Source: Escherichia phage vB_EcoM-fFiEco06 | Strand: one strand, 5' to 3' | DNA length: 64,000 nt | Sequence record: NC_054914.1 | Shown: in pieces, positions 44,439 to 64,000 of the stretch | How positions within the stretch are numbered: the first letter of the stretch is position 1 | Layout: the number at the start of each line of letters is the position of its first letter | Notes under the pieces: model-generated | Seen by the model: only the letters and a program-made list of their open reading frames with translations | Database searches by the model: none | What the model was told of the DNA's origin: nothing | Position numbers and translations under genes: made by a program

Positions 44439-44474
44439 TAAAATGTCCTGTCAGAAAAAGAATTTTGAGTTTTT

Positions 44475-45253: not shown

Positions 45254-45255
45254 AT

Positions 45256-45731: not shown

Positions 45732-45732
45732 A

Positions 45733-45975: not shown

Positions 45976-45977
45976 TT

Positions 45978-47293: not shown

Positions 47294-47347
47294 GTTCTTC
47301 TCACTTGGTTAATGGTTTATACTCCGAGCCATCCTTGGCTTTAAATT

Positions 47348-48379: not shown

Positions 48380-48407
48380 TATACCACATCCTTGTGGTAA
48401 AGTAAAC
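48378..48407 (-). promoter_or_regulatory. early promoter, near-identical to the rIIA.1 promoter
   Basis: GTTTAC-N18-TATAAT; ttataccacatccttgtggtaaagtaaacta shared with 2431..2460. Confidence 0.6.
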
Positions 48408-49426
48408 TAGTTCAGCGCATTTAGTGCATTGTTCAATTTAGAACGTTGCTTCGTGAGATTTTTGACTTTTTCTTGAGCTTTTTCTAGCATCTTTTCAGCT
48501 TCTAGCACTTCATTAGTTGCTTTAACGAGTTCATCATCTACTGCCTTGATAGACTTCTCAATCGCATCCGCGTGCCATTTTTCAACAGGTTTAAGACTCG
48601 GATTTTCAATAGGAAGAAAATTCACTTTATTGAATTTCCATGCATCTTTATTACCTGAGCTATACATCCAAAATTTAGGATCGTTTGATGAGCAATTAGA
48701 TAAATTTAAGTTATCTTGCACTTCCTGCTTTTTCTCTTGCGGGACTTCATCCTTTCTCAAAAAATCGTATTTAAATGAAACGATCATATCAAGTTCATAC
48801 GTTGTTGTATGTTCCCAATTTCGCTCAAAATGAGGTAAAATCTTAGACTGAACAGCGGCAACAACATCCATATACTTAAATGCTTCTGTCAACTGTGATT
48901 TAAGGCATTCACAAATTGAAAGAGAATTTTTTGTATTAGGTTTAAAGCTAATTCGTGCAGTTCTATTATTTTCTTTTAATGGTCTTACTTCCATCTGAAG
49001 AGTATAACCATCAAATTTCAGGTTCTTTAAGTTAATGTCAGAACCTTTTAATCGACTAGCCGTCGACAAAATTTGCTTTAATTGTTTACGGAATAGAGCA
49101 ATAAATCTCCATTCAAGACGGTAATGATTTGGATTAAAAAATCCTGTTGATAAATCAACCTTACTCTGACCAACGCCTTGAACAAATAGAGGATTTTTAT
49201 AATCAATAGTTTTACAGAAATCGGTGAGCTGTTCGCGAGCAGTCATTTGCGTAATATATCCAGCTTTATCAAAATGTCGCAGCCATTCACTGCTATTCAT
49301 ATACTTAAAGTGAATGGAACTATTAACTCTATCAGGGTCTAAATTATTTTGGCACAAAAATGTCATAACATCACGAGTATAACTGGCATTACGAACCATA
49401 TCTTCAATTTGAGAACGAGTTTTCAT
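48407..49426 (-). CDS. hypothetical protein with C-terminal coiled coil (paralog family member)
   Basis: 339 aa; RLEWRFIALFRKQLKQILSTASRL. Confidence 0.6.
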   Translation of the reverse strand: MKTRSQIEDMVRNASYTRDVMTFLCQNNLDPDRVNSSIHFKYMNSSEWLRHFDKAGYITQMTAREQLTDFCKTIDYKNPLFVQGVGQSKVDLSTGFFNPNHYRLEWRFIALFRKQLKQILSTASRLKGSDINLKNLKFDGYTLQMEVRPLKENNRTARISFKPNTKNSLSICECLKSQLTEAFKYMDVVAAVQSKILPHFERNWEHTTTYELDMIVSFKYDFLRKDEVPQEKKQEVQDNLNLSNCSSNDPKFWMYSSGNKDAWKFNKVNFLPIENPSLKPVEKWHADAIEKSIKAVDDELVKATNEVLEAEKMLEKAQEKVKNLTKQRSKLNNALNALN

Positions 49427-49434
49427 GGTGTTCC

Positions 49435-50337
49435 TTAAAATTTAAGTAAATCAACGATTTTAATTAATTTTTCACGCTCAGATTTAGCTTTACTACTCAA
49501 TCCAGATAGTCTGAAAATTTCATCATCATATTGCTGAATAGAAATATTTAGCTCTTCAATCTGCTTATTAAAATAAGCAATTTGTTCAGAATGTTTTTCA
49601 TTACTGCGAACTGGTACAGGTTTTGTAGGTAATTTAGATGAACTGGATTCATTCGGGCGATAAATTAAAATACAACTTGAACCAATCGGACATTTAGCAC
49701 CAGATGAATATTCTAATGTTCCAGCTTCTTTTAAAACTTCAAAAGCTAAACAGAGATGATGCCCCATATTGACATAATCTGTAGAGTGAGCTCTGATGTA
49801 ATAATCATCTCCACGAGTACTAAATTTAAAGCATTTAAGGTCTTCTGTATTATTGGTCTTAAAAATCATTTGTTTATCTAGACCTTTAGCTAATCGAGCG
49901 CCTAATGCTAATAATCGTCGTTGATTTTCCCACAAATCCACAATCATTTGGTCAAATGATAATTTCGGCATTAGTCGACCATAAAGGTCATATCCTTTAT
50001 TATAATTGCGAAGGATTTCACTCGCATTAATACGAGACAACGCTCCAATTTTATTAAGGGCTTTCATGATGCGATTAGATAAACCCATTCCAGATCCGTT
50101 TGTTCGTTGCAAATGTTTATCTAATCCAAACCCAATATCAACTTTAAATTTATCTAAAATTTCAGCATGAACATCTCTGTCAATAACATTCAAATCCAAA
50201 GTTGGGTTAAATCTATGAAAAAATTTATCTGGCTCTCCACGACGAAGTACAGTCCATTCATTTAATTTTTTATTAACTAAAGATTTAATTACTGCATTGA
50301 CATTATTAATTACTACTGACATATTTTTCTCACTCAA
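49435..50337 (-). CDS. hypothetical protein with C-terminal coiled coil (paralog family member)
   Basis: 300 aa; LWENQRRLLALGARLAKGL. Confidence 0.6.
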   Translation of the reverse strand: MSEKNMSVVINNVNAVIKSLVNKKLNEWTVLRRGEPDKFFHRFNPTLDLNVIDRDVHAEILDKFKVDIGFGLDKHLQRTNGSGMGLSNRIMKALNKIGALSRINASEILRNYNKGYDLYGRLMPKLSFDQMIVDLWENQRRLLALGARLAKGLDKQMIFKTNNTEDLKCFKFSTRGDDYYIRAHSTDYVNMGHHLCLAFEVLKEAGTLEYSSGAKCPIGSSCILIYRPNESSSSKLPTKPVPVRSNEKHSEQIAYFNKQIEELNISIQQYDDEIFRLSGLSSKAKSEREKLIKIVDLLKF

Positions 50338-50738
50338 TTTTCAATTTTACTAAATACACAGAATATGATGGAAAAGACTATATAAGCACCGCATACAGAT
50401 TGAACTAATACCATTCCAAAGAACCAAACAATATTATCAAACAATGTCTGTTTTACGTCGAAAGGACGTAAACTTACAGTAATATTATCGCCTTTTTCTA
50501 TTGATGAATACATCTCTGGTGAAATATATTCACTAAATCTATAACCGTCTTTGAGTTCATATACGGCAATAAACGATAAACTAGACCCCTTTCCTTGAGT
50601 TCCTGTAAGGGTATTAACTACAGTAACATCATAATCTTTATAATGCATATAATCATTAATTGCATAATAACCATATGCAACTACTACACATAAACAACAT
50701 ATCAATAAATTCAATCTTTTAATTATCAACTGTTTCAT
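50334..50738 (-). CDS. membrane protein
   Basis: 134 aa with N- and C-terminal hydrophobic segments. Confidence 0.55.
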   Translation of the reverse strand: MKQLIIKRLNLLICCLCVVVAYGYYAINDYMHYKDYDVTVVNTLTGTQGKGSSLSFIAVYELKDGYRFSEYISPEMYSSIEKGDNITVSLRPFDVKQTLFDNIVWFFGMVLVQSVCGAYIVFSIIFCVFSKIEN

Positions 50739-50793
50739 AATAATCTCAATTAAAAGGGCTTAGAACCATTATACCATCCTTGGTATAAAGCGG

Positions 50794-51321
50794 TTATGCG
50801 AGTACCGTCTTTAACCGTTCTTCAAACTTCCGAAGAGTATTTTGGCGTTCAGCTCTTTGCTTTTTGTAAGTTTCAATACGCTCTGAAATGAGAGTGTATC
50901 GTTCATTTACTGATTCTTTCATAAAATCAGGAATTTCACGAGAAGCTTTAATCTCGTCAAATTTATCAATAACTGCTTGCTCTTCAGCAATTAAGTTATC
51001 ATACATCAAAATATCTTTCTTGATGAACTCAATATCTTCTTGAGTTACACGAGATAATTTAGATGCTTTATCCTTTTTGTACTGTTCGTTAGTATCACGA
51101 GACCAGTGTAATGTACGATTTTTATTCGTATTCTTGTAAATTTCTACAATACCAATCTCATCGATAATAACGATCCAATTCCAACGAGATTTGTAAATTT
51201 GTCCTCCGTCAACCGTGATTTCACCTCCGATTGAGATGTCATTAAAGAACTTGCTTTGTGCTTCAGATTTAAATTTACCATCGTTGTAATTTACCAGGTT
51301 GAAAATATCTTTAGCGTTCAT
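50794..51321 (-). CDS. hypothetical protein
   Basis: 175 aa ORF downstream of an early promoter. Confidence 0.55.
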   Translation of the reverse strand: MNAKDIFNLVNYNDGKFKSEAQSKFFNDISIGGEITVDGGQIYKSRWNWIVIIDEIGIVEIYKNTNKNRTLHWSRDTNEQYKKDKASKLSRVTQEDIEFIKKDILMYDNLIAEEQAVIDKFDEIKASREIPDFMKESVNERYTLISERIETYKKQRAERQNTLRKFEERLKTVLA

Positions 51322-51349
51322 TTTGTGTTCCTCCGTAGTTGATAGTTGT

Positions 51350-51379
51350 ATAGTACCACAGAGGAACAGTCTTGTAAAC
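51350..51379 (-). promoter_or_regulatory. early promoter (second copy of repeated cassette)
   Basis: GTTTAC-N18-TACTAT; 42 nt identical to 25621..25662. Confidence 0.6.
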
Positions 51380-51381
51380 CA

Positions 51382-51696
51382 CTAAAAGAAACTTCTTTCA
51401 CAATTTTTTCCACTGAACCATGCGCTTACCGCTTTCTTAGTCTCAGGAGCAGTGTTATCCATAAACCATTCAAAGGCAGCCTTTTTATGATTCTGGAGGG
51501 CTTCTCGGGCTTTAATCTGCTCACGGTCTATTAACACTAACATATGAGCCTTTCTTGTCACCATGGGCTTCTTATGATTTTTTGAATACTCCCAGTCATT
51601 TGTCCATCGCATTGTCGTTGCGAACTTAAATACTGCTTCTTTAATTTTAGTTTCGTAAATTTCACGAGCCTTTGAGTATAACATCATTACCTCCAT
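51382..51696 (-). CDS. hypothetical protein
   Basis: 104 aa ORF. Confidence 0.5.
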   Translation of the reverse strand: MEVMMLYSKAREIYETKIKEAVFKFATTMRWTNDWEYSKNHKKPMVTRKAHMLVLIDREQIKAREALQNHKKAAFEWFMDNTAPETKKAVSAWFSGKNCERSFF

Positions 51697-51786
51697 TCAC
51701 CAGTTTAATTCTAGTCATCTTTTTAATGGCAGTCCATATAATCTATTTCTGAACTGCCTTTTTGTCATAGAAGTCCTCTTATGAAT

Positions 51787-52755
51787 TTATTTCAGAAGAG
51801 TAACCTCAGCGATTTCTTCCCAACCGTTTTTGTCGGTCATAATAAAGTCAGCAAGATAAAGAGCAGTACGCAGTGAAACATTGCGTAAACGATTAACATT
51901 AACTTTCATCCATGATAATGCTTTATAAGTTTCTTCATCAGAAAGACCGCGCTTTTGCATCATGTCGGTTGAAAGAATAACATCTTCAACCCTGACCATA
52001 ATTTCTTCATTAGTGTGAACACCCAAATCTAAATAAACTGAGCGGGACACTAATGCTTGTAAATGTGGAGCAAGTTTAGTACCACGGTCTAATTCGCGGT
52101 CAATATCAACGTTTGTGATAAAAACAATCGTTCCTTTAAATTCAAACTCACGCTCAATGCCTTTTTCTTCTAAGTAAGAAGATGCAGTGCTCCAGCAGAC
52201 TTTACGGGTCTCTCCAGTGTCCAGAGCAGCTTTCAGAAGATTAAGAATGTCCATATCAGAGAAAACATCCACATCATCAATCAAAAGGACAGAATTCTCT
52301 TCACGATTATTCCAAAGTTGTTCATAAAGACCGATACCGGAGATTTTACCGTTAATGCTTTTATATTCAATGTATCCATTATCATTTGCTTTATTCAAAG
52401 CTTTATCTAAAGAATACGTTTTACCAATACCCGCCGCACCAGAGATAATTAATGAACGAATGTTTCCGTTAATAATACCATTCGTCATCATTCCCATAAC
52501 ATTAAATCTTTTATTAATGCGGGTTTTCATATCTTCATATGATTCTTTAACTTCTTCAACTTTTACACCATCATATGAAATGTCTGATTTGTAAACCCAA
52601 ACACCGCGACGCTTACCGTCAATTTCAACAAAAACTTTACCATCTCCTTGTGCATCTACCGGAGCATTATCTGGGAACCATTCACCTAAGAGCTCAAAAG
52701 TTCCAGAGATTTCTTTACCGAAGTAGATACCCTTATTGATAGTTACAGTTTTCAT
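51787..52755 (-). CDS. P-loop NTPase (AAA-like ATPase)
   Basis: Walker A GAAGIGKT and Walker B LLIDDVD; ATG at 52755 with GGAG Shine-Dalgarno, track start 52773 is GTG. Confidence 0.65.
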   Translation of the reverse strand: MKTVTINKGIYFGKEISGTFELLGEWFPDNAPVDAQGDGKVFVEIDGKRRGVWVYKSDISYDGVKVEEVKESYEDMKTRINKRFNVMGMMTNGIINGNIRSLIISGAAGIGKTYSLDKALNKANDNGYIEYKSINGKISGIGLYEQLWNNREENSVLLIDDVDVFSDMDILNLLKAALDTGETRKVCWSTASSYLEEKGIEREFEFKGTIVFITNVDIDRELDRGTKLAPHLQALVSRSVYLDLGVHTNEEIMVRVEDVILSTDMMQKRGLSDEETYKALSWMKVNVNRLRNVSLRTALYLADFIMTDKNGWEEIAEVTLLK

Positions 52756-52791
52756 TTTATTCTCCAATCTCACATTTGTTTTGATAGGGTA

Positions 52792-52821
52792 ATAGTATCA
52801 CACTACTACCCTTCTGTAAAC
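52792..52821 (-). promoter_or_regulatory. early promoter upstream of the ATPase
   Basis: GTTTAC-N18-TACTAT. Confidence 0.55.
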
Positions 52822-52824
52822 AAT

Positions 52825-53088
52825 TTATTTTAACGTTCGCCAAATTTTTACTGCTTCACGGCGAGATACTTCTACAGCTCCAAGTTCTACAGCTTTTTGG
52901 CGTCGGCGAGCGTGTAAGTCATAATGTTTAATGCGTTTATCTTGAAACCAAGAACGTTTCATTCCTATTGCTTCTGCCATTTCATGAAGCTCTTCAATAT
53001 CTCCATCAGTGAACATATGACAATTTTTAGTTGGATGACCGCGAAGTTTCCATCCATGATTCATTAAAACATCTACGTAAACTGTCAT
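52825..53088 (-). CDS. hypothetical protein
   Basis: 87 aa ORF. Confidence 0.5.
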   Translation of the reverse strand: MTVYVDVLMNHGWKLRGHPTKNCHMFTDGDIEELHEMAEAIGMKRSWFQDKRIKHYDLHARRRQKAVELGAVEVSRREAVKIWRTLK

Positions 53089-53234
53089 TGATTCTTCTCC
53101 AAATAAGTTTCGATAATTTTCTGAGCGAGATAAACTGCATTATCTTCAGTTGCATCTTCTAAGAAACTTTCAAAACACTCTGAAATTTCTTCTGTATCAA
53201 TCAACTTTTTTACTTCAATTGGTGTAATTTTCAT
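53085..53234 (-). CDS. small acidic hypothetical protein
   Basis: track ORF begins upstream of the promoter -10 at 53272; internal ATG at 53234 gives 49 aa. Confidence 0.4.
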   Translation of the reverse strand: MKITPIEVKKLIDTEEISECFESFLEDATEDNAVYLAQKIIETYLEKNQ

Positions 53235-53271
53235 TTTGTTTTTCCGTTTAAGTGTTTGTTTTGATAGTTGT

Positions 53272-53301
53272 ATAGTACCATAAAGCTTTATGCTTGTAAA
53301 C
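53272..53301 (-). promoter_or_regulatory. early promoter (partial copy of repeated cassette)
   Basis: GTTTAC-N18-TACTAT. Confidence 0.55.
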
Positions 53302-53330
53302 AATTTTGTGAAAAATTTTTGAAATAAAAA

Positions 53331-53350
53331 AGGGAGCCCGAAGGCTCCCT
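53331..53350 (-). terminator. rho-independent terminator after the nucleotidyltransferase gene
   Basis: RNA AGGGAGCC-UUCG-GGCUCCCU followed by UUUUUUAUUU. Confidence 0.7.
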
Positions 53351-53351
53351 A

Positions 53352-54365
53352 TCATTTATAATAACTTCGGTGGTTTTCAAGATAAACCCTCTCAAGGAAG
53401 TCATCCCAAAAACCCATGTCTACTTTTTGCTGCATACCGTTCTTAGAAGCTTCAGTAGATGCTGCTTCTACTTGATCGACCACATCTTCCAAAAACTCTT
53501 GAACCGTTTTAAATGGATGTTTACCCAACTTCACGTCGAGAATAAATGGAGCATCTTGGAGTGGATAAACCAAGTCACCAGTTTTGTAAATTTCCAATAG
53601 TTGGAGTCCACCACGGCAAGCATGACTCAGAGCTTTCCAGTCAATACCTTCATTGGCTTCGGCCTTACGAGCACGTTCACCGTATTCAGCATCTAATTTG
53701 TTCAGTGACTGCTTAAGCTCAATAAGAGAAAGCGTTGTCTGATATTTACGACCCAACACTGTGTAGAACGTCTGTGGGCCTGTTTTCTCATGATTATGGA
53801 ACACCCATTCACAGAATTCGTTTTCTGGAAGACGATGCTTAATATCTTCAACTTTAGTACGACGCTGCTTAATAGAACCATCTTCTTGGTAATCAACCCA
53901 TTGCTCAGGGATTTGATTAACTACTTTCAATACATCACGTAATGCAGCCAAACGAGAACCCTTAACGCCGTATTTAGAAGCTTGCTTACGGACATATCCT
54001 AAATAGGATTTCATGTTAGTCGTATAAAAACGAGAACGGTTGTCTTGAATAAACTTCCACACATCAGGCAAATCAGATTTAACCACTAGTTCAGGTGGAG
54101 TGTGAAGCATATCTAACGCTACAGTTTCACCATCTGCTGCTAATTTAAAGAAATATTTAAGACTGTATAGTTCATGGTCAATATCATCTTTAGTGTTTTT
54201 AGATGATGTGTTGTTAGTGTTTTTACTCATGTGCTCTTTAACATTTCCGATAAGAATATCACGAGCAGGAGGAACAAAGATTTCTTTAAAATCTACATCA
54301 GATTCTGGGGTAGAAGTTCCATAAAGATGACTACCAAAATAGCTTTTCATTACTGTTTTCATCAT
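53352..54365 (-). CDS. Pol-beta-superfamily nucleotidyltransferase
   Basis: 337 aa; N-terminal GS-x11-DVD in YFGSHLYGTSTPESDVDFKEIFV. Confidence 0.6.
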   Translation of the reverse strand: MMKTVMKSYFGSHLYGTSTPESDVDFKEIFVPPARDILIGNVKEHMSKNTNNTSSKNTKDDIDHELYSLKYFFKLAADGETVALDMLHTPPELVVKSDLPDVWKFIQDNRSRFYTTNMKSYLGYVRKQASKYGVKGSRLAALRDVLKVVNQIPEQWVDYQEDGSIKQRRTKVEDIKHRLPENEFCEWVFHNHEKTGPQTFYTVLGRKYQTTLSLIELKQSLNKLDAEYGERARKAEANEGIDWKALSHACRGGLQLLEIYKTGDLVYPLQDAPFILDVKLGKHPFKTVQEFLEDVVDQVEAASTEASKNGMQQKVDMGFWDDFLERVYLENHRSYYK

Positions 54366-54823
54366 TCAGCCTTATATTCAATAACAGGACATACTTTAGC
54401 TTTACGAGCTTTTAAAAATTCAACGATAATCGATTTCTTGGGTTGAATAGGAGGTAAACCTTTATACGCCCTATCAATATTTTCTACGTGTAAAGCATAA
54501 TCCTTTTTCCATTTATAATCTTTATATTTTTCACGCAGTTGTGCAGGAATAACAAATGAACCGATAATAAGTAAAACAAGCAAAATGGCAAGTATAAATG
54601 CTGATGGAATAAGAGTCCATAAACTACCAAAAATAAGCCATTTCTGTATGATTTCTGCGCAGATGATAGTTAGACCTACGAGTATAGTACATCCGAAAAA
54701 AGAAACGAAAAATGTAGGGATAACAATAGACCAAAAGTATGCGCACAGCGTCTTAGGTCGTTGCCATTCATCGTTAAACAATTTGAATAATTTATAGTGC
54801 CAAGAGTTTTCATTAATAATCAT
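54362..54823 (-). CDS. membrane protein
   Basis: 153 aa with several hydrophobic helices. Confidence 0.55.
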   Translation of the reverse strand: MIINENSWHYKLFKLFNDEWQRPKTLCAYFWSIVIPTFFVSFFGCTILVGLTIICAEIIQKWLIFGSLWTLIPSAFILAILLVLLIIGSFVIPAQLREKYKDYKWKKDYALHVENIDRAYKGLPPIQPKKSIIVEFLKARKAKVCPVIEYKAE

Positions 54824-54825
54824 AA

Positions 54826-55347
54826 TTATCCTTTCATTGAAGGTGTAACAGTTGTTAAATACTTAATCATAGCTTCAGCTTCTGATTTTGATAATGAAAT
54901 TTCTTCATTGTTTTGACGAATAGAAATAAAATCCGGATGACGGTCACCACCAGCTTTTAAAACACACATATAAGTATCAGTTTCATCTTCAATATCTGAA
55001 ATGATTGAAGCAGTTCCACATGAATGCGGTTTTTGATAAATCAATACAGCTTTTCTTCCGCCATTTGACTGTTCATAAACTTTTAATACATCAAACAAAT
55101 CACTTCTTTTATCAATAGCTAAAATGTTATTTTCATCTTCAATGTTAAATCCTTCGGATACTTCATAAAGTGTCACCCATAAATCGCCAATATCAATAAC
55201 AGCGTTCACTTTTCCATGACTTTCAAGAGCATGACAAATTTTCTTGATTTCGTCATAACTCATTTTAATAATATCATCTCCTTGAATAAGAAAGATGTCA
55301 TTTTTAAATTCAACACGAATTAAACCACTTCCACTTGAAATAAACAT
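54826..55347 (-). CDS. hypothetical protein (paralog pair member)
   Basis: 173 aa; C-terminus ISLSKSEAEAMIKYLTTVTPSM parallels next ORF. Confidence 0.55.
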   Translation of the reverse strand: MFISSGSGLIRVEFKNDIFLIQGDDIIKMSYDEIKKICHALESHGKVNAVIDIGDLWVTLYEVSEGFNIEDENNILAIDKRSDLFDVLKVYEQSNGGRKAVLIYQKPHSCGTASIISDIEDETDTYMCVLKAGGDRHPDFISIRQNNEEISLSKSEAEAMIKYLTTVTPSMKG

Positions 55348-55353
55348 ATTTCC

Positions 55354-55911
55354 TCACTTTGAAATCATAGTTGGAATGACAGAATCGAGATAAGTCTTTA
55401 GCGCAATAGCTTCGTCTTTGGTAAATGTGACAATATACGATCGAAAATCATCAATTTGACGAATAGTTAAGACATCACCATCTTCATAGCATTTTGATAC
55501 GTTTAAAACAGTTTCATCATTCTGATTGCAAGCGTTAGTAATAATAGCATTGCAATTTTTGAGCCATTTTAAACTATGTTTTCTTTCATTAGAATAATAA
55601 AAATATTTAATCTTATCTATAAAACTATCCCAATGGATAACTGATAAACACATTGACTCACTTTTAATATTAAATCCTGGGCATGAAGAATAAAAATGAA
55701 TTTTGTGCTCATCATTGATGCTTACTATTTTATCAGTATAAGGATATTCAATTTGGGTTAAATGAATGATTTCACTAGGCGTAAAATATAGCATATCGTC
55801 TTCTTGTGTCAAACGATACATATTATTTACTTTTTCTATAGCTAATTCACCAAAAAGCGGACTAACTTCTAATACTAATCGTTTCATATTGATTCTCTTC
55901 GACTCACCCAC
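55354..55911 (-). CDS. hypothetical protein (paralog pair member)
   Basis: 185 aa; C-terminus VTFTKDEAIALKTYLDSVIPTM. Confidence 0.55.
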   Translation of the reverse strand: MGESKRINMKRLVLEVSPLFGELAIEKVNNMYRLTQEDDMLYFTPSEIIHLTQIEYPYTDKIVSINDEHKIHFYSSCPGFNIKSESMCLSVIHWDSFIDKIKYFYYSNERKHSLKWLKNCNAIITNACNQNDETVLNVSKCYEDGDVLTIRQIDDFRSYIVTFTKDEAIALKTYLDSVIPTMISK

Positions 55912-56034
55912 AATTACATACTCCTTTGAATAATATCAATAATGTTGTTCACCAGATTATAAGTAAACATTGGATAATTATATTGAATCATCACATACAC
56001 AACAAACAAAACTTTCATTCTCTTCTCCTTGGCA

Positions 56035-56068
56035 GTTGACAAGATTACTATATCATAATCTTGTCAAC
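56035..56068. repeat. 13-bp inverted repeat within an early promoter spacer
   Basis: gttgacaagatta ... taatcttgtcaac with 8-nt loop. Confidence 0.7.
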
Positions 56069-56076
56069 TTGTAAAC
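56047..56076 (-). promoter_or_regulatory. early promoter
   Basis: GTTTAC-N18-TATAGT. Confidence 0.5.
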
Positions 56077-56078
56077 CA

Positions 56079-56252
56079 TTAAATGACGTTTTCAATAAAA
56101 TTCTGAAGCTTTGTGTGAGCATCAACCATGATTTTCATTTCTTCTTTGGCGAAAGCTGTACCTCTTTCCCGAGAAGAACACTCATAGTCAGAAACTGCAT
56201 TAGCATATTCTTCAATTAGTTTCATTAAAAACATCTGCTTTTCAGTTTTCAT
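56079..56252 (-). CDS. small hypothetical protein
   Basis: 57 aa ORF not in track; start ambiguous (11-nt overlap with upstream ORF). Confidence 0.3.
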   Translation of the reverse strand: MKTEKQMFLMKLIEEYANAVSDYECSSRERGTAFAKEEMKIMVDAHTKLQNFIENVI

Positions 56253-56436
56253 TGTTCCACCTAATCATTTCAAGATATTGAACTAACTTAGCTTTAGATT
56301 TATCCAAATCCTTTTTAGCTGCTTCTATACCATCGTATGAATATCCTTCACAATGCTCAACTGCTAATTGATATGAATCTATTTCAATATCACGTGCTAA
56401 TTTAATGATTTTTTCAAACTGTTCGCGTGTTAGCAT
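56242..56436 (-). CDS. hypothetical protein
   Basis: 64 aa ORF. Confidence 0.5.
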   Translation of the reverse strand: MLTREQFEKIIKLARDIEIDSYQLAVEHCEGYSYDGIEAAKKDLDKSKAKLVQYLEMIRWNNEN

Positions 56437-56438
56437 AC

Positions 56439-56642
56439 TTACACTCTCGTATTATGATCGATAATTTCATCAAGAAACATATCTAACGCTTCTATAGCAT
56501 TATCAACTTTAGCTTCAAGTTCTTCAGCGCCTTTATTTGCAATGCCTGCCGAAAACCAAGCAAAGTCACTAAGTTCCTCATCTGCTTTGCGAATTAAAGC
56601 TACCAATTCTTTAATTTTATCTGCTTGTTCAATGCTAGTCAT
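56439..56642 (-). CDS. hypothetical acidic protein
   Basis: ATG at 56642 shares a base with upstream stop; track start 56678. Confidence 0.45.
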   Translation of the reverse strand: MTSIEQADKIKELVALIRKADEELSDFAWFSAGIANKGAEELEAKVDNAIEALDMFLDEIIDHNTRV

Positions 56643-56830
56643 TATTCCACCACATATGAAAGAGAGAATATTGCACACGCCATATGAGTTGCAGCTTCAT
56701 CACACATATCATAACGTTTCTTAAGAAGTTCTACAAGTTCTTCACTAGTAACTTCATCCATGTCGACGAAAAAATCACCATTAATGATGACGTAGATATT
56801 TCCTTCTTGATTAAGTGCTTCAATTTTCAT
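56642..56830 (-). CDS. hypothetical acidic protein
   Basis: ATG at 56830 with AGAGGAG Shine-Dalgarno, downstream of promoter; track start 56875 lies upstream of the -10. Confidence 0.45.
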
Positions 56831-56858
56831 GATGTTCTCCTCTTTATCCGATAGTTGT

Positions 56859-56888
56859 ATAGTATCACAGCTCAAACGGAAAGTAAAC
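56859..56888 (-). promoter_or_regulatory. early promoter
   Basis: GTTTAC-N18-TACTAT. Confidence 0.55.
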
Positions 56889-56903
56889 CGGTAAAATGAA
56901 AAA

Positions 56904-56921
56904 AGTCTCCCGAAGGAGACT
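56904..56921 (-). terminator. rho-independent terminator downstream of the rI cluster
   Basis: RNA AGUCUCC-UUCG-GGAGACU followed by UUUUUUCAUUUU. Confidence 0.7.
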
Positions 56922-56925
56922 AATG

Positions 56926-57312
56926 TTATTCGAGGGAAAGAAGATACTTACTCTGGTAAAACATTCCAGTAATATCATCTATCGTGCTTTGAATGGCTGG
57001 AGGCATTTCTTTATAAATGCTGTTAGATTGGTCTAGTATGCGATCAATCATTTTAATTGTGTCGGTAGGAAGTTTACTGGCATCTGGAATTGAAGGCGTG
57101 TATTTTCTACCAGAATACCCCAAATATTGCTCACCAAATTTATCAATCAAATCTGGCAATTCGGAGAAAATAAAATCGTATGCTTTGTGTCTAGCATAAC
57201 TTTTAGTTTCAAAATGCGCAGAATGAAAATAAGCTTGTGCAGCCATTAATAAACCTAAGTATTCATCTGCCTTTGAAGGTTTTCCACTTTGTGAAAAGTC
57301 GCTGAATTTCAT
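56926..57312 (-). CDS. hypothetical protein downstream of rI
   Basis: 128 aa; ATGA overlap with rI. Confidence 0.6.
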
Positions 57313-57602
57313 TCAGTCTCCAATTTAATGTTCATAATTCTAGCGTATGATTGTGCCATCTCCGCGCCTCGTTCTATACATTCAAAATCAGAAGAGCACG
57401 GGTCATTTTTATAGGTCGTTCTCATAAAACTATAGAACTGTTCAGATGATTCTACGCTTTTATTTTCAAAAAGCATATAAACATGTCTAATACCAGATTC
57501 CATAAATTTATCAAAATGAGGATCGACATTCGCTTCAATCGATGGAGATAAAACAAATGACAATCCTAGCATGGCAAATAGTGCCGTTGCTTTTAAGGCC
57601 AT
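57309..57602 (-). CDS. rI: lysis inhibition regulator RI
   Basis: 97 aa with signal-anchor; recalled as T4 RI. Confidence 0.85.
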   Translation of the reverse strand: MALKATALFAMLGLSFVLSPSIEANVDPHFDKFMESGIRHVYMLFENKSVESSEQFYSFMRTTYKNDPCSSDFECIERGAEMAQSYARIMNIKLETE

Positions 57603-57614
57603 AAAGGCCTCCTA

Positions 57615-57827
57615 TCATTTTTGTCCTGTATTTACTTTATGCCGATGCACGGCCTTAACTTTATCAAGGTATTTTTCAAAATTTCGCAATCTAGTATAGT
57701 CTGCCGGAGATTGATTGAGTGATACTTCTCGACGCAAAGCTGAAATGATATTTCCAACTTCCCTACGAATTTCATCTAATTGAAGCACAGTAAGATTGCG
57801 AAGTTGCTTTTCAGTTAATTGTAGCAT
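57615..57827 (-). CDS. hypothetical protein
   Basis: 70 aa ORF upstream of rI. Confidence 0.5.
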
Positions 57828-57852
57828 ATATACCCCTTTAGTTAGATAAACC

Positions 57853-57860
57853 TATTTATA
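57853..57860 (-). promoter_or_regulatory. late promoter TATAAATA upstream of rI cluster
   Basis: minus strand TATAAATA 26 nt upstream of the ATG at 57827. Confidence 0.5.
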
Positions 57861-57869
57861 ACTTTTGCA

Positions 57870-58451
57870 CTAACCGAGCTTTTTAGTTAATTCATTCCAA
57901 TGTTTTCTACACAAAGAAACATAAATTTCATCACCAATACAGATTTGATTACCTTCTTTAACTGGTGTTCCATCTTCCATTAATCGAGCTGTCATAATCG
58001 CTTTTTTACCACAATGACAAACTGCTTTTAATTCAATAAGTTTATCTGCAATCGCTAAAAGTTCTTTAGAACCTTCAAATAATTTTCCAGCGAAATCAGT
58101 CCTTAATCCATAAGCCATAACAGGAACATTATATGTATCAACAATTCGACTTAATTGATGCACTTGTTCAGTTTTTAAAAACTGAGCTTCATCTACAAAT
58201 ACGCAATGAATATCTTTTTGTGCTTCAGCCCATTTATAGAACTCGAAAATATCCATATCATCTGTAATAATATTCGCTTCCTGTTTAATTCCAATGCGAG
58301 AAACAACTTCACAGACAGAATCGCGAGTATCAATAGCAGGCTTAAGAACTAATACACTCATTCCACGTTCTTTATAATTATGTGCAGCAGTCAAAAGAGA
58401 AGCAGATTTTCCAGCATTCATTGCTGCATAAGTAAAAATTAAACTCGCCAT
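57870..58451 (-). CDS. tk: thymidine kinase
   Basis: 193 aa; P-loop YAAMNAGKS and C-terminal zinc cysteines; recalled as T4 Tk. Confidence 0.9.
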   Translation of the reverse strand: MASLIFTYAAMNAGKSASLLTAAHNYKERGMSVLVLKPAIDTRDSVCEVVSRIGIKQEANIITDDMDIFEFYKWAEAQKDIHCVFVDEAQFLKTEQVHQLSRIVDTYNVPVMAYGLRTDFAGKLFEGSKELLAIADKLIELKAVCHCGKKAIMTARLMEDGTPVKEGNQICIGDEIYVSLCRKHWNELTKKLG

Positions 58452-58460
58452 ATCACCTTC

Positions 58461-58646
58461 TTAAAGCGTATTCACATAAGCTATTAATTCGTTTTCTTTC
58501 TTATCAAACCGATCAGCAAATTCTTCCTGCTGTTCTGGAGATAGCGGGCCGTATTCATCATAAAAGGTGTTTGCTTCTGTATGCTCATCTAGAAGTTCAT
58601 GGATAAGCTCAAACAATTTATCTTTTTGTTCTTTACTCAGACTCAT
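58461..58646 (-). CDS. hypothetical acidic protein
   Basis: 61 aa ORF. Confidence 0.5.
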   Translation of the reverse strand: MSLSKEQKDKLFELIHELLDEHTEANTFYDEYGPLSPEQQEEFADRFDKKENELIAYVNTL

Positions 58647-58812
58647 ATATTAATTTCCAGGAGTTTTAAAATAATTCGCTTTTGCTTAAATATTTCCATA
58701 GTTAAATGACCAGTATCTTTTTGACCGATTCCAATGGCAAAACCTTTATTGACAGCGAGTTCAATTAAATTATCAAGCTCACGTAACACTTCATACTGTA
58801 ACTCAAAACTAT

Positions 58813-59025
58813 TCATTTCGGTTTACCTTCTTTAACGAAATCTGGATAAGGATAAAATCCCGAATAAAATCCTTCACCTTTATGATTGATGCATCCTTTA
58901 TTAGAACAATAGCACCAATAATCGAAATCACAAGCCATTTCATCGTTGCATAAAGCAAAAACAACTGGCCATTTACACTTTTCACAATGGGCATTTTTAA
59001 GAATACTAGTTTGGCTCATAACCAT
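58813..59025 (-). CDS. Cys-rich hypothetical protein
   Basis: 70 aa; HCEKCK ... CNDEMAC ... CYCSNKGC; preferred over the overlapping 58809..58994 frame. Confidence 0.45.
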   Translation of the reverse strand: MVMSQTSILKNAHCEKCKWPVVFALCNDEMACDFDYWCYCSNKGCINHKGEGFYSGFYPYPDFVKEGKPK

Positions 59026-59243
59026 GTAACCTTTAAGCAGTATTCTTCTACATGCTGTTTACGACCTTTCTTATCAATAAAGGTATATTCAACGAATGTT
59101 CCAATGTAGTCTTTATCTACATCATGCGGACTATTAATTGGACATTTAGTACGGCAAATGCGTTCCCATTGACGAATAATTACTGCCTTATTCTTTGGGT
59201 CATATGGATGTGGATAATGTATATTCATAATAACGGTTCCCAA
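59016..59243 (-). CDS. hypothetical protein
   Basis: 75 aa ORF. Confidence 0.5.
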   Translation of the reverse strand: MGTVIMNIHYPHPYDPKNKAVIIRQWERICRTKCPINSPHDVDKDYIGTFVEYTFIDKKGRKQHVEEYCLKVTWL

Positions 59244-59692
59244 TCAACAATCACAATTTCTAATTTAGAGGAATATGTATCTAAAATCCCCTCAATAATA
59301 TCCCAGTTCCCTTTACCTATGCCTGCACCAATCCTAGGCATATAGATTGTAGGTTTAATCAGTTTATTTTCACCAAACTCATTTAATTCTAACATACAAT
59401 TCATTAAAGCGGAATACTCAAAATTTGGCCCTGGTTGAAATTGAGTATAAAGGTTGAAGCAATACGCTTTATGAGTCCTAAAGTATTTTTCATAGACTGA
59501 GTAAGAACCGAGTTTAGTTACATCACCCCATTCAGTCTGTAATTTATCAGCTTCCAAAATTTTAGGGAAAGCTTTGGTTAATTGACCCGCTACGCCTGAA
59601 CCCATAGTATGAAAACAATTGCATCCATGCGCAATATTTTTACCTTCAGCGAAAAGGGCGACAATATCGCCCTTGATATATTTTACAATCAT
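59225..59692 (-). CDS. macro domain protein (ADP-ribose binding or processing)
   Basis: 155 aa; GDI ... NIAHGCNCFHTMGSGVAGQ and IYMPRIGAGIGKGNWD resemble macro-domain signatures. Confidence 0.6.
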   Translation of the reverse strand: MIVKYIKGDIVALFAEGKNIAHGCNCFHTMGSGVAGQLTKAFPKILEADKLQTEWGDVTKLGSYSVYEKYFRTHKAYCFNLYTQFQPGPNFEYSALMNCMLELNEFGENKLIKPTIYMPRIGAGIGKGNWDIIEGILDTYSSKLEIVIVDWEPLL

Positions 59693-60030
59693 CTAGTACT
59701 CAATCCTCGATTATAAGAATCTACCAAACGGTCAACCATTGAATGACAAGCGGCTTTATCTTTCTCCTCCGCAACTGAACATTCTAAGGTATTCCACTTT
59801 TTAGCATATCGTTTTAATAATGTATCGTTTTTGTATCTGCTTGATTTATCTCTTTCTCCGTCTTTATATGCATATATTAATTTCTGCGCAAATTCAGCTT
59901 GGCATGCTTTATTTTTCCCACAATAATCTGCCGCAGTGCGATTTACATATTCTCTAATTTCAGTATATGATGTATCTGCTAACGCAGAAAATGAAATTAA
60001 TCCTATACATAAAACCAAAATTTTAGTCAT
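59689..60030 (-). CDS. secreted hypothetical protein
   Basis: 113 aa with signal peptide and four cysteines. Confidence 0.55.
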   Translation of the reverse strand: MTKILVLCIGLISFSALADTSYTEIREYVNRTAADYCGKNKACQAEFAQKLIYAYKDGERDKSSRYKNDTLLKRYAKKWNTLECSVAEEKDKAACHSMVDRLVDSYNRGLSTR

Positions 60031-60568
60031 TTACTATTTCCAAAAGTTTATTATTTTTAAGGTAATTAGCCTTTTCTAGGACTTCAGAAGCATATTTAGA
60101 ACCTGCTTTAACATTCCATCCCGAATTATAAGATGATATTGCTTTTCTTATATCGCCCTTATGTATATTTAACCAATAAGAAAGTTCAATGTACGCCCAG
60201 GAAGCTGAATTGGATCGTTTATTCAACATTCTTTTTATTTCAGCATCGGTCATATTATAACCAAGTTCCTTAACTCTTGCTCGCATAGTAGGCAAATAAT
60301 TTTGGAACATTCCATAAGCGTGATGCTTTGGTTTAGATTTTAAATTAACTCCGCCAGAGCTTTCTTGCCATAAAATGGCTGCCATTATATGGCCTAATCC
60401 GCTCTTGTGGATGTTTTTGTGTGTTTTATATTTTCCATCCTTAGAAAATTGTTCCCCGAATTGATACGCGTAACGCATGTTATCGAGTTGGACATTACTG
60501 AAAGTATGCTCGGAGCTATGTGCCATCATTGAAATGGCCAATAGACCAGCGAGTAGTGCTTTTCTCAT
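60023..60568 (-). CDS. secreted lytic transglycosylase-like protein
   Basis: 181 aa with signal peptide; WQESSGG and YGMFQ resemble SLT-domain catalytic region. Confidence 0.55.
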   Translation of the reverse strand: MRKALLAGLLAISMMAHSSEHTFSNVQLDNMRYAYQFGEQFSKDGKYKTHKNIHKSGLGHIMAAILWQESSGGVNLKSKPKHHAYGMFQNYLPTMRARVKELGYNMTDAEIKRMLNKRSNSASWAYIELSYWLNIHKGDIRKAISSYNSGWNVKAGSKYASEVLEKANYLKNNKLLEIVND

Positions 60569-60575
60569 GCTTACC

Positions 60576-61037
60576 TCATTGAGTTTTAATTACTGCTTTA
60601 GAAGCCTTTCCTGGTAAACGACGACTGTTGATAATTGCCATCCTGCATTGAAGTGACGGGTTTTTGAACTTCTCATTAGGCTTACAAACCGTAAATCCAA
60701 GCCAAAGATTTCCATCTGTGATTTCTAAACGTCCAGGACGATATTCAACCCCATCAATAAAATCCTCGTCAATGTCAGGACGCGGAGGCATACTCAGGAA
60801 TTCATTAACTTCTAAAACATGGTCTTTTATTTTATGGAATAATTCAAAAACATATGTCTCATCAATCTCCCGTTGAATTGCACGATCAAGAAGATGTTGA
60901 GAATATTTTAGATGAAACGATGAGACTCCTGCTGCTTTTGATGCCTCACGAATCTCATTGTTAATTTGACGAAACTCCGACTCAAAATGACGACGAAGCT
61001 TATTTCGACGGATAAAAACTTCTGTATTGATAGTCAT
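60576..61037 (-). CDS. regB: RegB site-specific endoribonuclease
   Basis: 153 aa; recalled as T4 RegB. Confidence 0.85.
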   Translation of the reverse strand: MTINTEVFIRRNKLRRHFESEFRQINNEIREASKAAGVSSFHLKYSQHLLDRAIQREIDETYVFELFHKIKDHVLEVNEFLSMPPRPDIDEDFIDGVEYRPGRLEITDGNLWLGFTVCKPNEKFKNPSLQCRMAIINSRRLPGKASKAVIKTQ

Positions 61038-61064
61038 GTTGTTCTCCTCTTAACTGATAGAAAA

Positions 61065-61094
61065 ATTATACCACAGTCAAGAGGAAAAGTAAAC
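61065..61094 (-). promoter_or_regulatory. early promoter upstream of regB
   Basis: GTTTAC-N18-TATAAT. Confidence 0.6.
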
Positions 61095-61096
61095 AG

Positions 61097-61417
61097 TTAT
61101 TCTTTAAATCTAATCAATTTATTCATAGACTTTGAAACTTCTGCACGAACCTCATGTAGATTTTTGAGCTGTTCAAGACGCTGCGTATAGTAAGCAATTT
61201 CATCTTCTTCGAGACAGTCCTGTGAATCTTCTTTAAGATACCGTGCATAGTCCTGGAAAGCGTTACGGACTACTTCCTGGAAGTCATCAAGACTTTGAAT
61301 TTTCTTAGGAGCAGCAGACACACGACGAGGGGCAGTATAATACTCATAACCAAACCCTGCGCTTAATTGAGCCATTAGTATTTTTCCTCTGGTTGGAACA
61401 CAGCACGACAAGCCCAC
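61097..61417 (-). CDS. hypothetical protein
   Basis: 106 aa ORF. Confidence 0.5.
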
Positions 61418-61677
61418 ATACTGGCTTCTTTGAGTTTCGTTTTAGCAATAGCTAACTGATCGAGGCTTTCAGCATAATTCTTCGCGAGTTCAAAGTCTTC
61501 GCAATTATCTAGTGCTTCCCAGAATTCATCATATAAAGCATCAAAGATAAGTCCTAAACGAACTTCAGCGTCTTTAATAGCATTTACTTTACCGATTTTT
61601 TCGTCGGTATGTGGCTTATAACCTTTAATATCTTCAATCATATTTGACTTCCTCACCAGTACATAAATCGTATTCAA
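61375..61677 (-). CDS. hypothetical protein
   Basis: 100 aa ORF; start uncertain. Confidence 0.5.
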
Positions 61678-61855
61678 CTAAACGAATAGGTTCATGAATG
61701 CCATATCCCTGAACAGAAATTTCTGTCGTAGGATAAATTCCACTAATATCACCCATATTCCACGCTTCATTAAATTGATGTTCGCCTGAATTACTAAACC
61801 ATTCTGCGAAAGCATTTAACACATCTTTAGAACCTTCAATAATTATCTTTGCCAT
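61634..61855 (-). CDS. hypothetical protein
   Basis: 73 aa ORF. Confidence 0.5.
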   Translation of the reverse strand: MAKIIIEGSKDVLNAFAEWFSNSGEHQFNEAWNMGDISGIYPTTEISVQGYGIHEPIRLVEYDLCTGEEVKYD

Positions 61856-62217
61856 TACAAGCTCTCAGTAAAGGTACGAGCGATAACGTCGCGCTGCTGT
61901 TCCGGAGTCAGAGAGTTAAAGCGAACTGCATAACCGGATACACGGATGGTCAGCTGCGGATATTTTTCCGGATGCTTAACTGCATCTTCCAGAGTTTCAC
62001 GACGCAGAACGTTAACGTTCAGGTGTTGACCACCTTCAATTTTAACTGTAGGCTGTGTCTCAATTTCAATTTCACGGGCATGCAAACCATAGAAAATTTC
62101 TGGGTCTACAAAAGAGTCCTCTTTAAAGGTTTTAGAGACAATAATTCGTGCTTGAATACCATCTTCAAAATAAATAGTACCTTTATGTGTGCCTTCAAGA
62201 ATTTGATATGCTTTCAT
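61855..62217 (-). CDS. GrcA/YfiD-like autonomous glycyl radical cofactor
   Basis: 120 aa; C-terminus [29 protein letters not shown] matches the glycyl-radical domain of pyruvate formate-lyase / E. coli YfiD; local GC content visibly higher. Confidence 0.8.
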
Positions 62218-62223
62218 ATAACC

Positions 62224-62604
62224 TCAATTAGAAAATAAATTTATCCAAGATTGTTCTTTAATTAAAAATGGCTCAGAATCATATGCCATTAAACTCTGTG
62301 TGATTAGTCCTTTAAAAGGCCCATCAATAAATTCCATGGTAAAATATGGAATTTTATTCATTAGCCGTGCATTAGGAGCCGTGCACAAAACTCTGCATCC
62401 TTTGAATACGCCTTTTTGTAATTTGTATTGCTTGGGATAAAATTCGCTCAAAATGTTATTTTTTGCCAAAATTTCAAAATGATTCACCAATTTATTTTTA
62501 ATAGTTTTTGGCGAAAAATAAAGATATTCGAAAAGCTGAGTGTCTGTCATCATTGCATTCCGATTACGAAAAACTGTGGACGAGTAATACCACCAATGCA
62601 ACAT
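62224..62604 (-). CDS. hypothetical protein
   Basis: 126 aa ORF; alternative ATG at 62550 would abut upstream stop. Confidence 0.5.
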   Translation of the reverse strand: MLHWWYYSSTVFRNRNAMMTDTQLFEYLYFSPKTIKNKLVNHFEILAKNNILSEFYPKQYKLQKGVFKGCRVLCTAPNARLMNKIPYFTMEFIDGPFKGLITQSLMAYDSEPFLIKEQSWINLFSN

Positions 62605-63089
62605 TTAATATTACAGCAGCAGTGTACAGTGTCAATATGGACACTATAAATCTTATCCATATCAGGAGATTTGACAGGCTCATCAATTATATACAAAATT
62701 CGCGAAAGCGATAAACCTCTGAACTTGCTTCCTTTATTACCAATAAAACTGCGTACAGAATCAGTAAATAAACGAAAACGTATATCATCATTAGAATAAC
62801 GTGAAAATTCCTTTTTAATGTTATTTGCAGAAATTTTAGCGTAAGCTGAAGTATTAGAAAGAACAATAACTGTTCCGCCATCATACAACCAATTAGCAGC
62901 AAAGTTAGTCACAGCAATTGATTTACCAGATTGACGTCCACCGTCTAGTCGAAGTGTGCAATACTGTTTAAGTAAGTCTTCAAATGGCGGGATATATTCG
63001 TTTTTACAAATTTCTTCTACTCTAGCATCAGAATGGTGTGTAAAAGCATTCATCAGGGATAGATAAGGACCAGTTAAAAATGTTCTCAT
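62550..63089 (-). CDS. P-loop protein with C-terminal cysteine cluster
   Basis: Walker A GGRQSGKS; C-terminal HCCCNIKCC; ATG at 63089 preferred over track start 63137. Confidence 0.45.
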   Translation of the reverse strand: MRTFLTGPYLSLMNAFTHHSDARVEEICKNEYIPPFEDLLKQYCTLRLDGGRQSGKSIAVTNFAANWLYDGGTVIVLSNTSAYAKISANNIKKEFSRYSNDDIRFRLFTDSVRSFIGNKGSKFRGLSLSRILYIIDEPVKSPDMDKIYSVHIDTVHCCCNIKCCIGGITRPQFFVIGMQ

Positions 63090-63234
63090 TTTGTTCTCTC
63101 TAGGTTTGGGCCATTCCATGGCGCATGAATTGTCCATTTCTGTATTTACCCATTACCGCACTTGGGCTCGACCTTATTACAGGTTGGCGGGAATCCCTCA
63201 CAGAATCATGAGGTCCAGGTTATTCCCATGTTAT

Positions 63235-63651
63235 TTAAATGTAAATATTTTTGCCGTAATACTTATACCAGTGTGGCTTCATTAAAATTTTTTCATCGAG
63301 TCGTTGTTGACTCAACTTAATAGCTGATTTACATGGATTATAATCATTTTTCCATTCTACTGGAATATCGCTGATGTCAGGAACTTCAGTATCTTTTATA
63401 CTGAACCCGCGTTTTAAGCATTCCGTTATAATGTCCGATTGACGCTTTCGCAAAAATTCTAACTTATCGTAAAAGAAAGTAACATGACCAGAACCTAAAA
63501 TAAATTTAGAAGATATTTTAAAATCTTTAACGCGCTTACCGTTTGCCACATGCTTACGAACTATACCAAAAACACGCGGCAATTCACGGTATTCTGCGAT
63601 TAAATGTTGATCAGCAAGTTCAGATACTAAAGTCAAATTAATACGAGTCAT
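63235..63651 (-). CDS. denV: endonuclease V (pyrimidine dimer DNA glycosylase)
   Basis: 138 aa; [17 protein letters not shown] recalled as T4 DenV. Confidence 0.9.
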
Positions 63652-63676
63652 TTTATCCCTCCAAGTAACTGTGAAT

Positions 63677-63706
63677 ATACTATCACAATTCTAGGAGAAA
63701 GTAAAC
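63677..63706 (-). promoter_or_regulatory. early promoter upstream of denV
   Basis: GTTTAC-N18-TAGTAT. Confidence 0.55.
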
Positions 63707-63710
63707 AACT

Positions 63711-64000
<290 letters not shown>

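Follow-up and report, generated by a model that had tools for sequence, protein, structure and literature searches.

The window, a 64,000-nt stretch of the genome of Escherichia phage vB_EcoM-fFiEco06 (NC_054914.1), contains near its end an ORF on the minus strand which is a genuine gene, namely vs.6 (Y06I) of a Tequatrovirus (T4-like phage; see Table 1). The gene was found to be 100% identical to that annotated as Vs.6 in record MG781191, and the region surrounding it (61400-62700) shows 100% identity to Escherichia phage vB_EcoM-fHoEco02 (Tequatrovirus) and 95-99% identity to several hundred T4-type phages. In the fHoEco02 record, Vs.6 is flanked by Vs.5 and Vs.7 within the tk-vs-regB-denV early region. 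The counterpart in T4 (NC_000866) is vs.6, which has this same locus, with vs.5 and vs.7 on either side, and bears the label "autonomous glycyl radical cofactor GrcA", an annotation carried for this gene by the GenBank records of many relatives. The two proteins are identical at 118 of 120 residues, the window protein having T54 where T4 has P and R73 where T4 has H. Neither the gene nor its function is new, T4 vs.6/Y06I having been characterised in 2001. The stop codon of vs.6 overlaps the start of vs.5 as TAATG, and a scan for promoters and terminators around the gene gave six sites compared to 7.1 expected from shuffled sequence, which is no excess.

Table 1. Location of vs.6, its parts and signals, and the anaerobic ribonucleotide reductase genes within the window
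Feature	Position	Strand	Basis
nrdG, phage anaerobic ribonucleotide reductase activase (context only)	41465-41935	-	ORF; Pfam Fer4_12/Radical_SAM
nrdD, phage anaerobic ribonucleotide reductase (context only)	41932-43749	-	ORF; Pfam NRDD, E 2e-170
vs.6/Y06I coding sequence, phage GrcA-type autonomous glycyl radical cofactor	61855..62217	-	ATG start, 120 aa, ORF list
Phage-type 3' tail (GAGAGCTTGTAA region; host GAAAGCCTGTAA), 3' limit of tract	61855..61864	-	Alignments
Host-derived conversion tract, identical over all 175 nt to nt 200-374 of E. coli grcA, encoding EGGQHLNV...RTFT of the radical domain	61865..62039	-	Longest exact shared run, pairwise alignment
Gly95 codon, RVSGYAV motif, predicted glycyl radical site	61933..61935	-	Motif position, sequence, alignment to 6owr and 1h16
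5' part of phage type (AT-rich, GC3 0.20), codons 1-59, N-terminal region	62040..62217	-	Without DNA similarity to grcA
GAGG Shine-Dalgarno, 4 nt 5' of the vs.6 ATG, overlapping the vs.7 stop	62222..62225	-	Sequence read directly

A number of other features were observed in the window. Two genes 3' of vs.6, the T4 vs.4 counterpart (61375-61677, minus strand) was found to contain the Pfam domain Acb2_Tad1_hairpin (E 2.1e-20), identifying it as the anti-CBASS cyclic-nucleotide sponge Acb2, and the record of one relative labels its own vs.4 counterpart "anti-CBASS protein 2". The mechanically called vs.7 ORF (62224-62604, minus strand) is 126 aa in length, while relatives annotate a 109-aa product from an internal ATG; the alignment to PHROG 2049 begins at residue 18, which supports the shorter start. 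On the minus strand at 63235-63971, denV (endonuclease V, 63235-63651) directly adjoins the e lysozyme gene. The internal-protein genes ipII and ipIII, which lie between denV and e on the T4 map, are absent from this position in both the window and MG781191. The coordinates of these two sequences are the same at nrdG/nrdD (41465-43749) and are offset by +10 at 61400, which points to a net 10-bp indel within ~43750-61400, or to the window being from a very close relative.

The product of vs.6 is a small standalone protein (14 kDa, 120 aa) consisting mainly of a C-terminal glycyl radical domain, as is typical of the GrcA/YfiD family (TIGR04365/IPR011140). The Pfam domain Gly_radical was detected at residues 60-101 (E 2.2e-18; score 67.2 bits, cut-off 22.2). 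Among solved structures the top match was E. coli YfiD/GrcA (PDB 6owr, E 4.6e-42), with the C-terminus of pyruvate formate-lyase (PFL; 1h16) being second and aligned over PFL residues 697-759 (E 4.8e-26). The last 61 residues (IEGGQHL...TESL) match those of E. coli GrcA at 60 positions, with the sole difference being I for V at the first. A reading made earlier from the sequence only had named a GrcA/YfiD-type glycyl radical protein at this position, with some 60 C-terminal residues nearly identical to E. coli YfiD, and these searches bear out both observations. Alignment to 6owr and 1h16 equates Gly95 with Gly102 of E. coli GrcA and with Gly734 of PFL. The presence of the RVSGYAV motif with this glycine, followed by a PFL-type C-terminus, is what would be predicted of a protein able to replace PFL residues ~700-759.

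The N-terminal part of the protein is more diverged. The best NCBIfam match was TIGR04365 GrcA with a score of 154.6 bits, which lies under the equivalog cut-off of 170 (E. coli GrcA itself scores 233.9 bits) because the N-terminus has diverged, the alignment being limited to residues 20-120. The N-terminal 59 residues are ~29% identical to those of E. coli GrcA and seven residues shorter, giving proteins of 120 and 127 aa, respectively. A comparison of the phage N-terminal profile with that of bacterial GrcA using hhalign gave a probability of 97% (E 1.1e-10, 59 columns, 29% identity) and showed a GrcA-type N-terminal region to be present. Judged from these profiles, the vs.6 N-terminus is distantly homologous to that of bacterial GrcA and not an unrelated fusion partner. 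This region of GrcA is described as being required for efficient radical installation (PMC13450708). The protein also belongs to PHROG 1209 (E 5e-63), and by its family relationships vs.6 is best regarded as a diverged phage subfamily of GrcA. It has in common with E. coli GrcA/YfiD (P68066; 6owr being an NMR structure) the RVSGYAV motif, the nearly identical C-terminal domain, 175 nt of DNA identity and the homologous N-terminal region. It differs in its genomic setting, with vs.6 located in the AT-rich early-gene cluster of a virulent phage and E. coli grcA next to ung.

E. coli YfiD and T4 Y06I, with a glycyl radical installed by PFL activase, are reported to bind O2-cleaved PFL and to restore its activity (Knappe and co-workers; Wagner et al. 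2001, BBRC 285:456, cited in PMC8683613 and PMC13450708). By analogy with this T4 orthologue, vs.6 would be a spare part for the O2-cleaved pyruvate formate-lyase of the host, with host PflB and PflA being its likely partners. From the biochemistry of the T4 protein, it is expected that the host activase PflA would place the radical on Gly95, that the activated protein would dock onto host PFL cut at Gly734 by oxygen, and that this docking would restore the production of acetyl-CoA and formate in micro-oxic infection. The benefit to the phage may be that host GrcA is not renewable during infection, presumably because host gene expression is shut off after infection. A search of the open-access literature found no in vivo phage phenotype for vs.6/Y06I.

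The sequence-only reading had also pointed to phage-encoded NrdD and NrdG, both of which are present in the window, and had implied that vs.6 could be a spare part connected with them. Were vs.6 a spare glycyl radical part for the phage NrdD, activated by NrdG, in place of host PFL, this would agree with the location of both genes 18 kb from vs.6 and with NrdD also using an oxygen-sensitive glycyl radical, and a role of vs.6 in nucleotide metabolism has been suggested (PMC1524935). However, BLASTP detected no similarity between vs.6 and the NrdD of the window (E 2.7), the radical domain is nearly identical to that of E. coli GrcA and near to the PFL C-terminus, and the rescue reported for the T4 protein is that of PFL (PMC8683613). 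The PFL/GrcA type of the radical domain argues that the part replaced is host pyruvate formate-lyase, as reported for T4 Y06I, and the connection to NrdD, considered very improbable, was set aside.

At the DNA level, the two halves of vs.6 were found to differ greatly in their relationship to the host gene. Gene nt 179-363 are identical to E. coli grcA at 183 of 185 positions, including an exact run of 175 nt (gene nt 179-353). Pairwise alignment showed the 5' boundary of this run to be a knife-edge, as upstream of the junction ...GTTAAAA/TTGAAGGTGG the phage and host genes are essentially unalignable and downstream of it 175 consecutive bases are identical. Neither BLAST nor pairwise alignment found alignable DNA similarity between the 5' half of vs.6 and E. 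coli grcA. The final ~10 nt of the gene diverge from grcA once more (GAGAGCTTGTAA versus GAAAGCCTGTAA), with the GAG AGT CTA of this tail being common to the Mosigvirus and Slopekvirus copies and unlike the host sequence. Base composition follows the same division: the 5' 177 nt have a GC content of 0.339 and a GC3 of 0.20, as in the rest of the phage, and the 3' 183 nt have values of 0.492 and 0.44, compared to 0.497 and 0.43 for the same part of E. coli grcA. The tract is the sole 176-nt stretch of the window reaching a GC content of 0.494 (window mean 0.343, sd 0.040, z 3.8). T4 has the same E. coli-type 3' tract (182/186 to E. coli grcA), although with one non-synonymous change, whereas the tract of the window is a perfect copy of E. 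coli grcA.

A BLAST search of the vs.6 gene against 5,426 complete E. coli genomes matched grcA in all of them, through gene nt 179-363 only and with 98.9% identity. Megablast of window positions 1-50000 against the same genomes found nothing, and that of positions 50001-64000 found only the vs.6 tract together with its weaker paralogous match to pflB. The host-derived DNA in vs.6 is limited to the internal tract of ~175 nt. Contamination of the assembly was considered as a source of the tract and rejected, as some 640 independent phage records have it, among them that of T4 from early on (X04567).

To place vs.6 among its relatives, its locus was compared with those of T4, three Mosigviruses, seven Jiaodaviruses, two Slopekviruses and one each of Karamvirus, Nanhuvirus, Krischvirus and the T5-like Tequintavirus. 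The proteins of the family in these loci are mostly 120-123 aa in length (138 aa in the Krischvirus), and all copies have a phage-type N-terminus followed by an invariant radical domain. The gene order vs.5-vs.6-vs.7 is found in Tequatrovirus and Mosigvirus, while a vs.6 with the phage-type N-terminus also occurs in Jiaoda-, Slopek-, Karam-, Nanhu- and Krischvirus with varying neighbours, and in T5-like phages the family is present at a different locus. A scan of IMG/VR yielded only about six Tequatro- or Mosigvirus copies, but extended the family to phages of the RB43/RB16 type, to jumbo phages of ~350 kb and to numerous further T5-like phages. The 5' half of vs.6 was itself detected in 812 phage records with 72-100% identity, and an earlier comparative study lists the gene in six of six T4-like genomes (PMC1524935). 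This breadth across phage genera together with the homologous N-terminus identifies vs.6 as a long-resident phage homologue of full-length grcA.

With regard to the wider family (L093, L143-L169), the T5-like Demerecviridae encode a member with an MKAYQNLKSG... N-terminus adjoining tRNA genes, as in Salmonella phage Spc35 (L093, 315-683). The jumbo phages of ~350 kb with the family include an Erwinia phage. No host-identical tract was found in the T5-like or jumbo-phage copies. Phage-encoded GrcA is far wider spread than the two "validated" spare parts of the biochemical literature. A number of IMG/VR contigs classed as viral (L130, L171-L181) contain instead a complete grcA of bacterial type, similar to that of Yersinia, or else the pflB 3' end, and probably represent host flanks of predicted prophages.

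The sequence-only reading had described the DNA of the gene as GC-richer than its surroundings and had proposed its recent capture from an enterobacterial host. The GC content was indeed found to be non-uniform, and the identity to host grcA is far above that expected of an old phage gene. Both statements nevertheless apply to a part of the gene only. The higher GC content is that of the 3' half and not of the 5' 177 nt, and recent acquisition, from E. coli, holds for the tract of ~175 nt and not for the gene as a whole, of which the 5' 178 nt, the last ~10 nt, the N-terminal sequence and the position between vs.5 and vs.7 are phage-type and common to T4-like genera. Recent capture of the whole of grcA as a unit could draw on the near identity of the 3' half to the E. 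coli gene and on its host GC content. It is contradicted by a 5' part of phage-like composition without DNA similarity to grcA, by the return to phage-type sequence at the 3' end, and by the fact that several T4-like genera, as well as T5-like phages which lack a host-identical tract, have kept the gene with its N-terminus. Only nt 179-353 are host-like, and a gene whose 5' half is phage-type was found in 812 T4-like records and again in several other T4-like genera. Whole-gene capture is already refuted by the sharp internal boundaries and is left with an exceedingly small probability.

The last 186 nt of vs.6 match E. coli grcA at 183 positions and that of Citrobacter at 169, with fewer matches to Salmonella and Klebsiella. 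A comparison of the tract with 83 bacterial grcA sequences gave the same order, with 173/174 for E. coli, 171/174 for a cryptic Escherichia species, 159/174 for Citrobacter and lower values for Salmonella, Klebsiella and Enterobacter. As the match is highest for E. coli, the donor was E. coli or Shigella itself. This panel comprised 80 enterobacterial and Pasteurellaceae loci from a contig scan, from which K. pneumoniae was absent, and the grcA genes of K. pneumoniae and K. aerogenes were taken from chromosomes misfiled as plasmids in PLSDB, with few Klebsiella alleles represented; that of K. aerogenes was used after a 1-nt homopolymer correction. In K. aerogenes NCTC10006 a homopolymer frameshift truncates the annotated grcA CDS. 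Whole or partial chromosomes labelled as plasmids were seen repeatedly in PLSDB (L095, CP125156.1; L096, LR134122.1; K. pneumoniae of 5.37 Mb; E. coli of 4.8-4.9 Mb).

Between bacterial species, the 5' and 3' halves of grcA show dS values of 0.85 and 0.98 for Salmonella, and of 0.83-0.96 and 0.75-0.93 for Klebsiella sp. Because the bacterial halves are similar in dS and the tract has the composition of the host, the direction of transfer is from host to phage. Sequence identity is by itself directionless, and a phage could have given the radical-domain tract to the grcA of E. coli and Klebsiella. However, the matched divergence of the two bacterial halves fits vertical descent, the GC3 of the tract is that of the host and not of the phage, the tract is carried by all 5,426 E. 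coli genomes, and the 5' halves of the phages group together, in contrast to their tracts, each of which matches grcA from the phage's own host genus. Transfer in this reverse direction has next to no probability.

The internal location of the tract, with phage-type sequence on both sides, is a signature of homologous recombination (a conversion patch) and not of capture by illegitimate end-joining. Its boundaries are also the limits of the sole region with enough similarity for pairing between the phage gene and that of the host, and the crossovers lie within this region. It is therefore host-to-phage exchange within the gene that the alignments point to, with the radical-domain half of an old phage grcA homologue evidently overwritten by E. 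coli grcA via homologous recombination (gene conversion). By this account, an old syntenic phage homologue of full-length grcA has had its internal radical-domain tract of ~175 nt swapped for that of E. coli. A search of the open-access literature found no description of such a host-patched vs.6 mosaic, which is weak evidence of novelty.

Aside from the Tequatroviruses, the same pattern was observed in the genus Mosigvirus. Relative to the window, the Mosigvirus copies have 19-22 differences over the 178 positions of the 5' part (11%, dS 0.40-0.50), and only 0-5 over the 175 of the tract (0-3%). For a Mosigvirus-type locus from IMG/VR (L107), the differences are 20/178 and 0/175, respectively (Fisher p 1e-6), with 13/59 and 0/58 at third codon positions. 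With perfect E. coli copies in both genera, a single acquisition before their split would not be possible, leaving repeated host donation or movement from phage to phage. In phage APCEc01 the tract shows five changes of its own and reaches no more than 95.7% identity to any of the 5,426 E. coli genomes, which indicates that some copies of the tract are older.

A related pattern with a different donor was found in the Jiaodaviruses, which are phages of Klebsiella. Their vs.6 copies have a GC3 of 0.20-0.22 in the 5' part and 0.54-0.57 in the 3' part. Compared to K. pneumoniae grcA (the reference being a chromosome filed as a plasmid), the tract of IMG/VR locus L127 matches at 157/159 positions and those of KP1, VMC05 and K65evo4 at 154/159. 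The Jiaodavirus tracts match E. coli grcA at only 133-140/159 (L127 at 139/159), with K. pneumoniae itself matching E. coli at 139/159. Between KP01 and KP179, two Jiaodaviruses which are otherwise nearly identical, there are 2/178 differences in the 5' part and 11/162 in the tract (p 0.009). It should be mentioned that one nucleotide appears to be deleted in the 5' half of L127 (IMGVR_UViG_2974754850; ACTTTTATGGC versus ACTTTTTATGGC), owing to a sequencing error or else marking a pseudogene.

Other lineages lack such tracts. The domain encoded by the Karam-, Krisch-, Nanhu- and T5-like copies is nearly the same, but their DNA is at most ~85% identical to any of the 83 bacterial grcA sequences, with a low GC3 in several, and shows the look of an unconverted phage copy. 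In Slopek- and Karamvirus virtually the same radical-domain peptide is found with silent sites that are saturated (dS of 1.4-1.9, or beyond estimation), and this combination indicates that the peptide does not constrain silent sites. These data bear on the possibility that the tract was acquired once, long ago, by a common ancestor of Tequatro- and Mosigvirus, its identity to E. coli being kept by selection at the DNA or RNA level (codon usage, mRNA structure) and not by repeated exchange. The same apparent 5' boundary in the two genera and the drift seen in APCEc01 agree with it. In conflict with it are the distribution of third-position differences between L107 and the window, the saturated silent sites behind the same peptide in other phage lineages, and the K. 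pneumoniae-type tract at the same place in the Jiaodaviruses. Such an ancient origin is considered improbable. The tract was installed, and apparently also renewed, through gene conversion in no fewer than two phage-host pairs, and this replacement would be recent and repeated, with E. coli tracts in Tequatro- and Mosigvirus and a K. pneumoniae-like tract in Jiaodavirus. Several host-to-phage events, and one event followed by spread from phage to phage, are both compatible with the data.

Smaller differences of this kind were also observed. RB16 and RB43 (L115/L117, E. coli phages) and KP15 (L118, a Klebsiella phage) have most silent-site states in common and differ in a GAA/CTG codon and a K/E codon, in each case matching the GrcA of their own host (LEDAVKH versus LLDAVEH). 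This swap could be due to short-patch conversion or to selection for host-matched residues, and the short GAA-to-CTG patch in Slopekvirus, relative to RB16/RB43, is possibly a further conversion by a host allele. Four of the variants seen in phage tracts are also present as SNPs among three sampled alleles of Escherichia (15G, 42C, 105T), which hints at separate donors, with recurrent third-position mutation being another possible cause. Tequatroviruses listed on Serratia, Yersinia and Salmonella have the E. coli tract, and no near-identical tract was found for the Klebsiella Slopekviruses among the 83 bacterial grcA sequences. As these tract types are at odds with the host labels, any "host tracking" is not strict.

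Taken as a whole, the most satisfactory explanation, and one held to be very probable, is that this ORF is the T4-type vs.6/Y06I, a PFL spare part, and an old phage gene with a recent and recurrent host conversion tract. It is suspected, with somewhat more confidence than doubt, that vs.6 is in addition a hotspot of ongoing conversion from host to virulent phage, in which the radical-domain half is repeatedly replaced by the allele of the current host, so keeping the spare part matched to host PFL and PflA. Selection of conversion for a better fit to host PFL and PflA, and conversion as a neutral result of homology, are both compatible with the data.

Intragenic recombination between host and phage is reportedly known from the psbA and psbD genes of cyanophages, said to have been described by Zeidner and colleagues in 2005 and Sullivan and colleagues in 2006. 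As in those genes, vs.6 is a phage copy of a host metabolic gene with host-like sequence and GC content in a patch, pointing to gene conversion. It differs in that the phage is a hydroxymethylcytosine-containing T-even phage which destroys host DNA, and in that the patch is single, domain-sized and 100% identical to the current host, with a different donor in the Klebsiella phages. What is added to the known vs.6 is the mosaic structure of the tract and its conversion in at least two phage-host pairs, which is a modest evolutionary footnote and not a new system. In annotation and in screens for horizontal gene transfer, a high host identity over part of a phage gene should not be equated with recent capture of the whole gene.

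The vs.6 gene nonetheless presents a clean and statistically strong case of a virulent T4-type phage with a domain-sized patch identical to a host gene, and indicates that homologous exchange with host DNA occurs in nature even in phages that degrade and exclude cytosine-containing host DNA. The synonymous sites of the 175-nt tract provide a simple marker for measuring such exchange and for inferring the recent hosts of T4-like phages. If vs.6 is the conversion hotspot suspected above, it would be a natural and easily assayed reporter of exchange between host chromosome and phage, and may exemplify selection in favour of auxiliary proteins that match the host.
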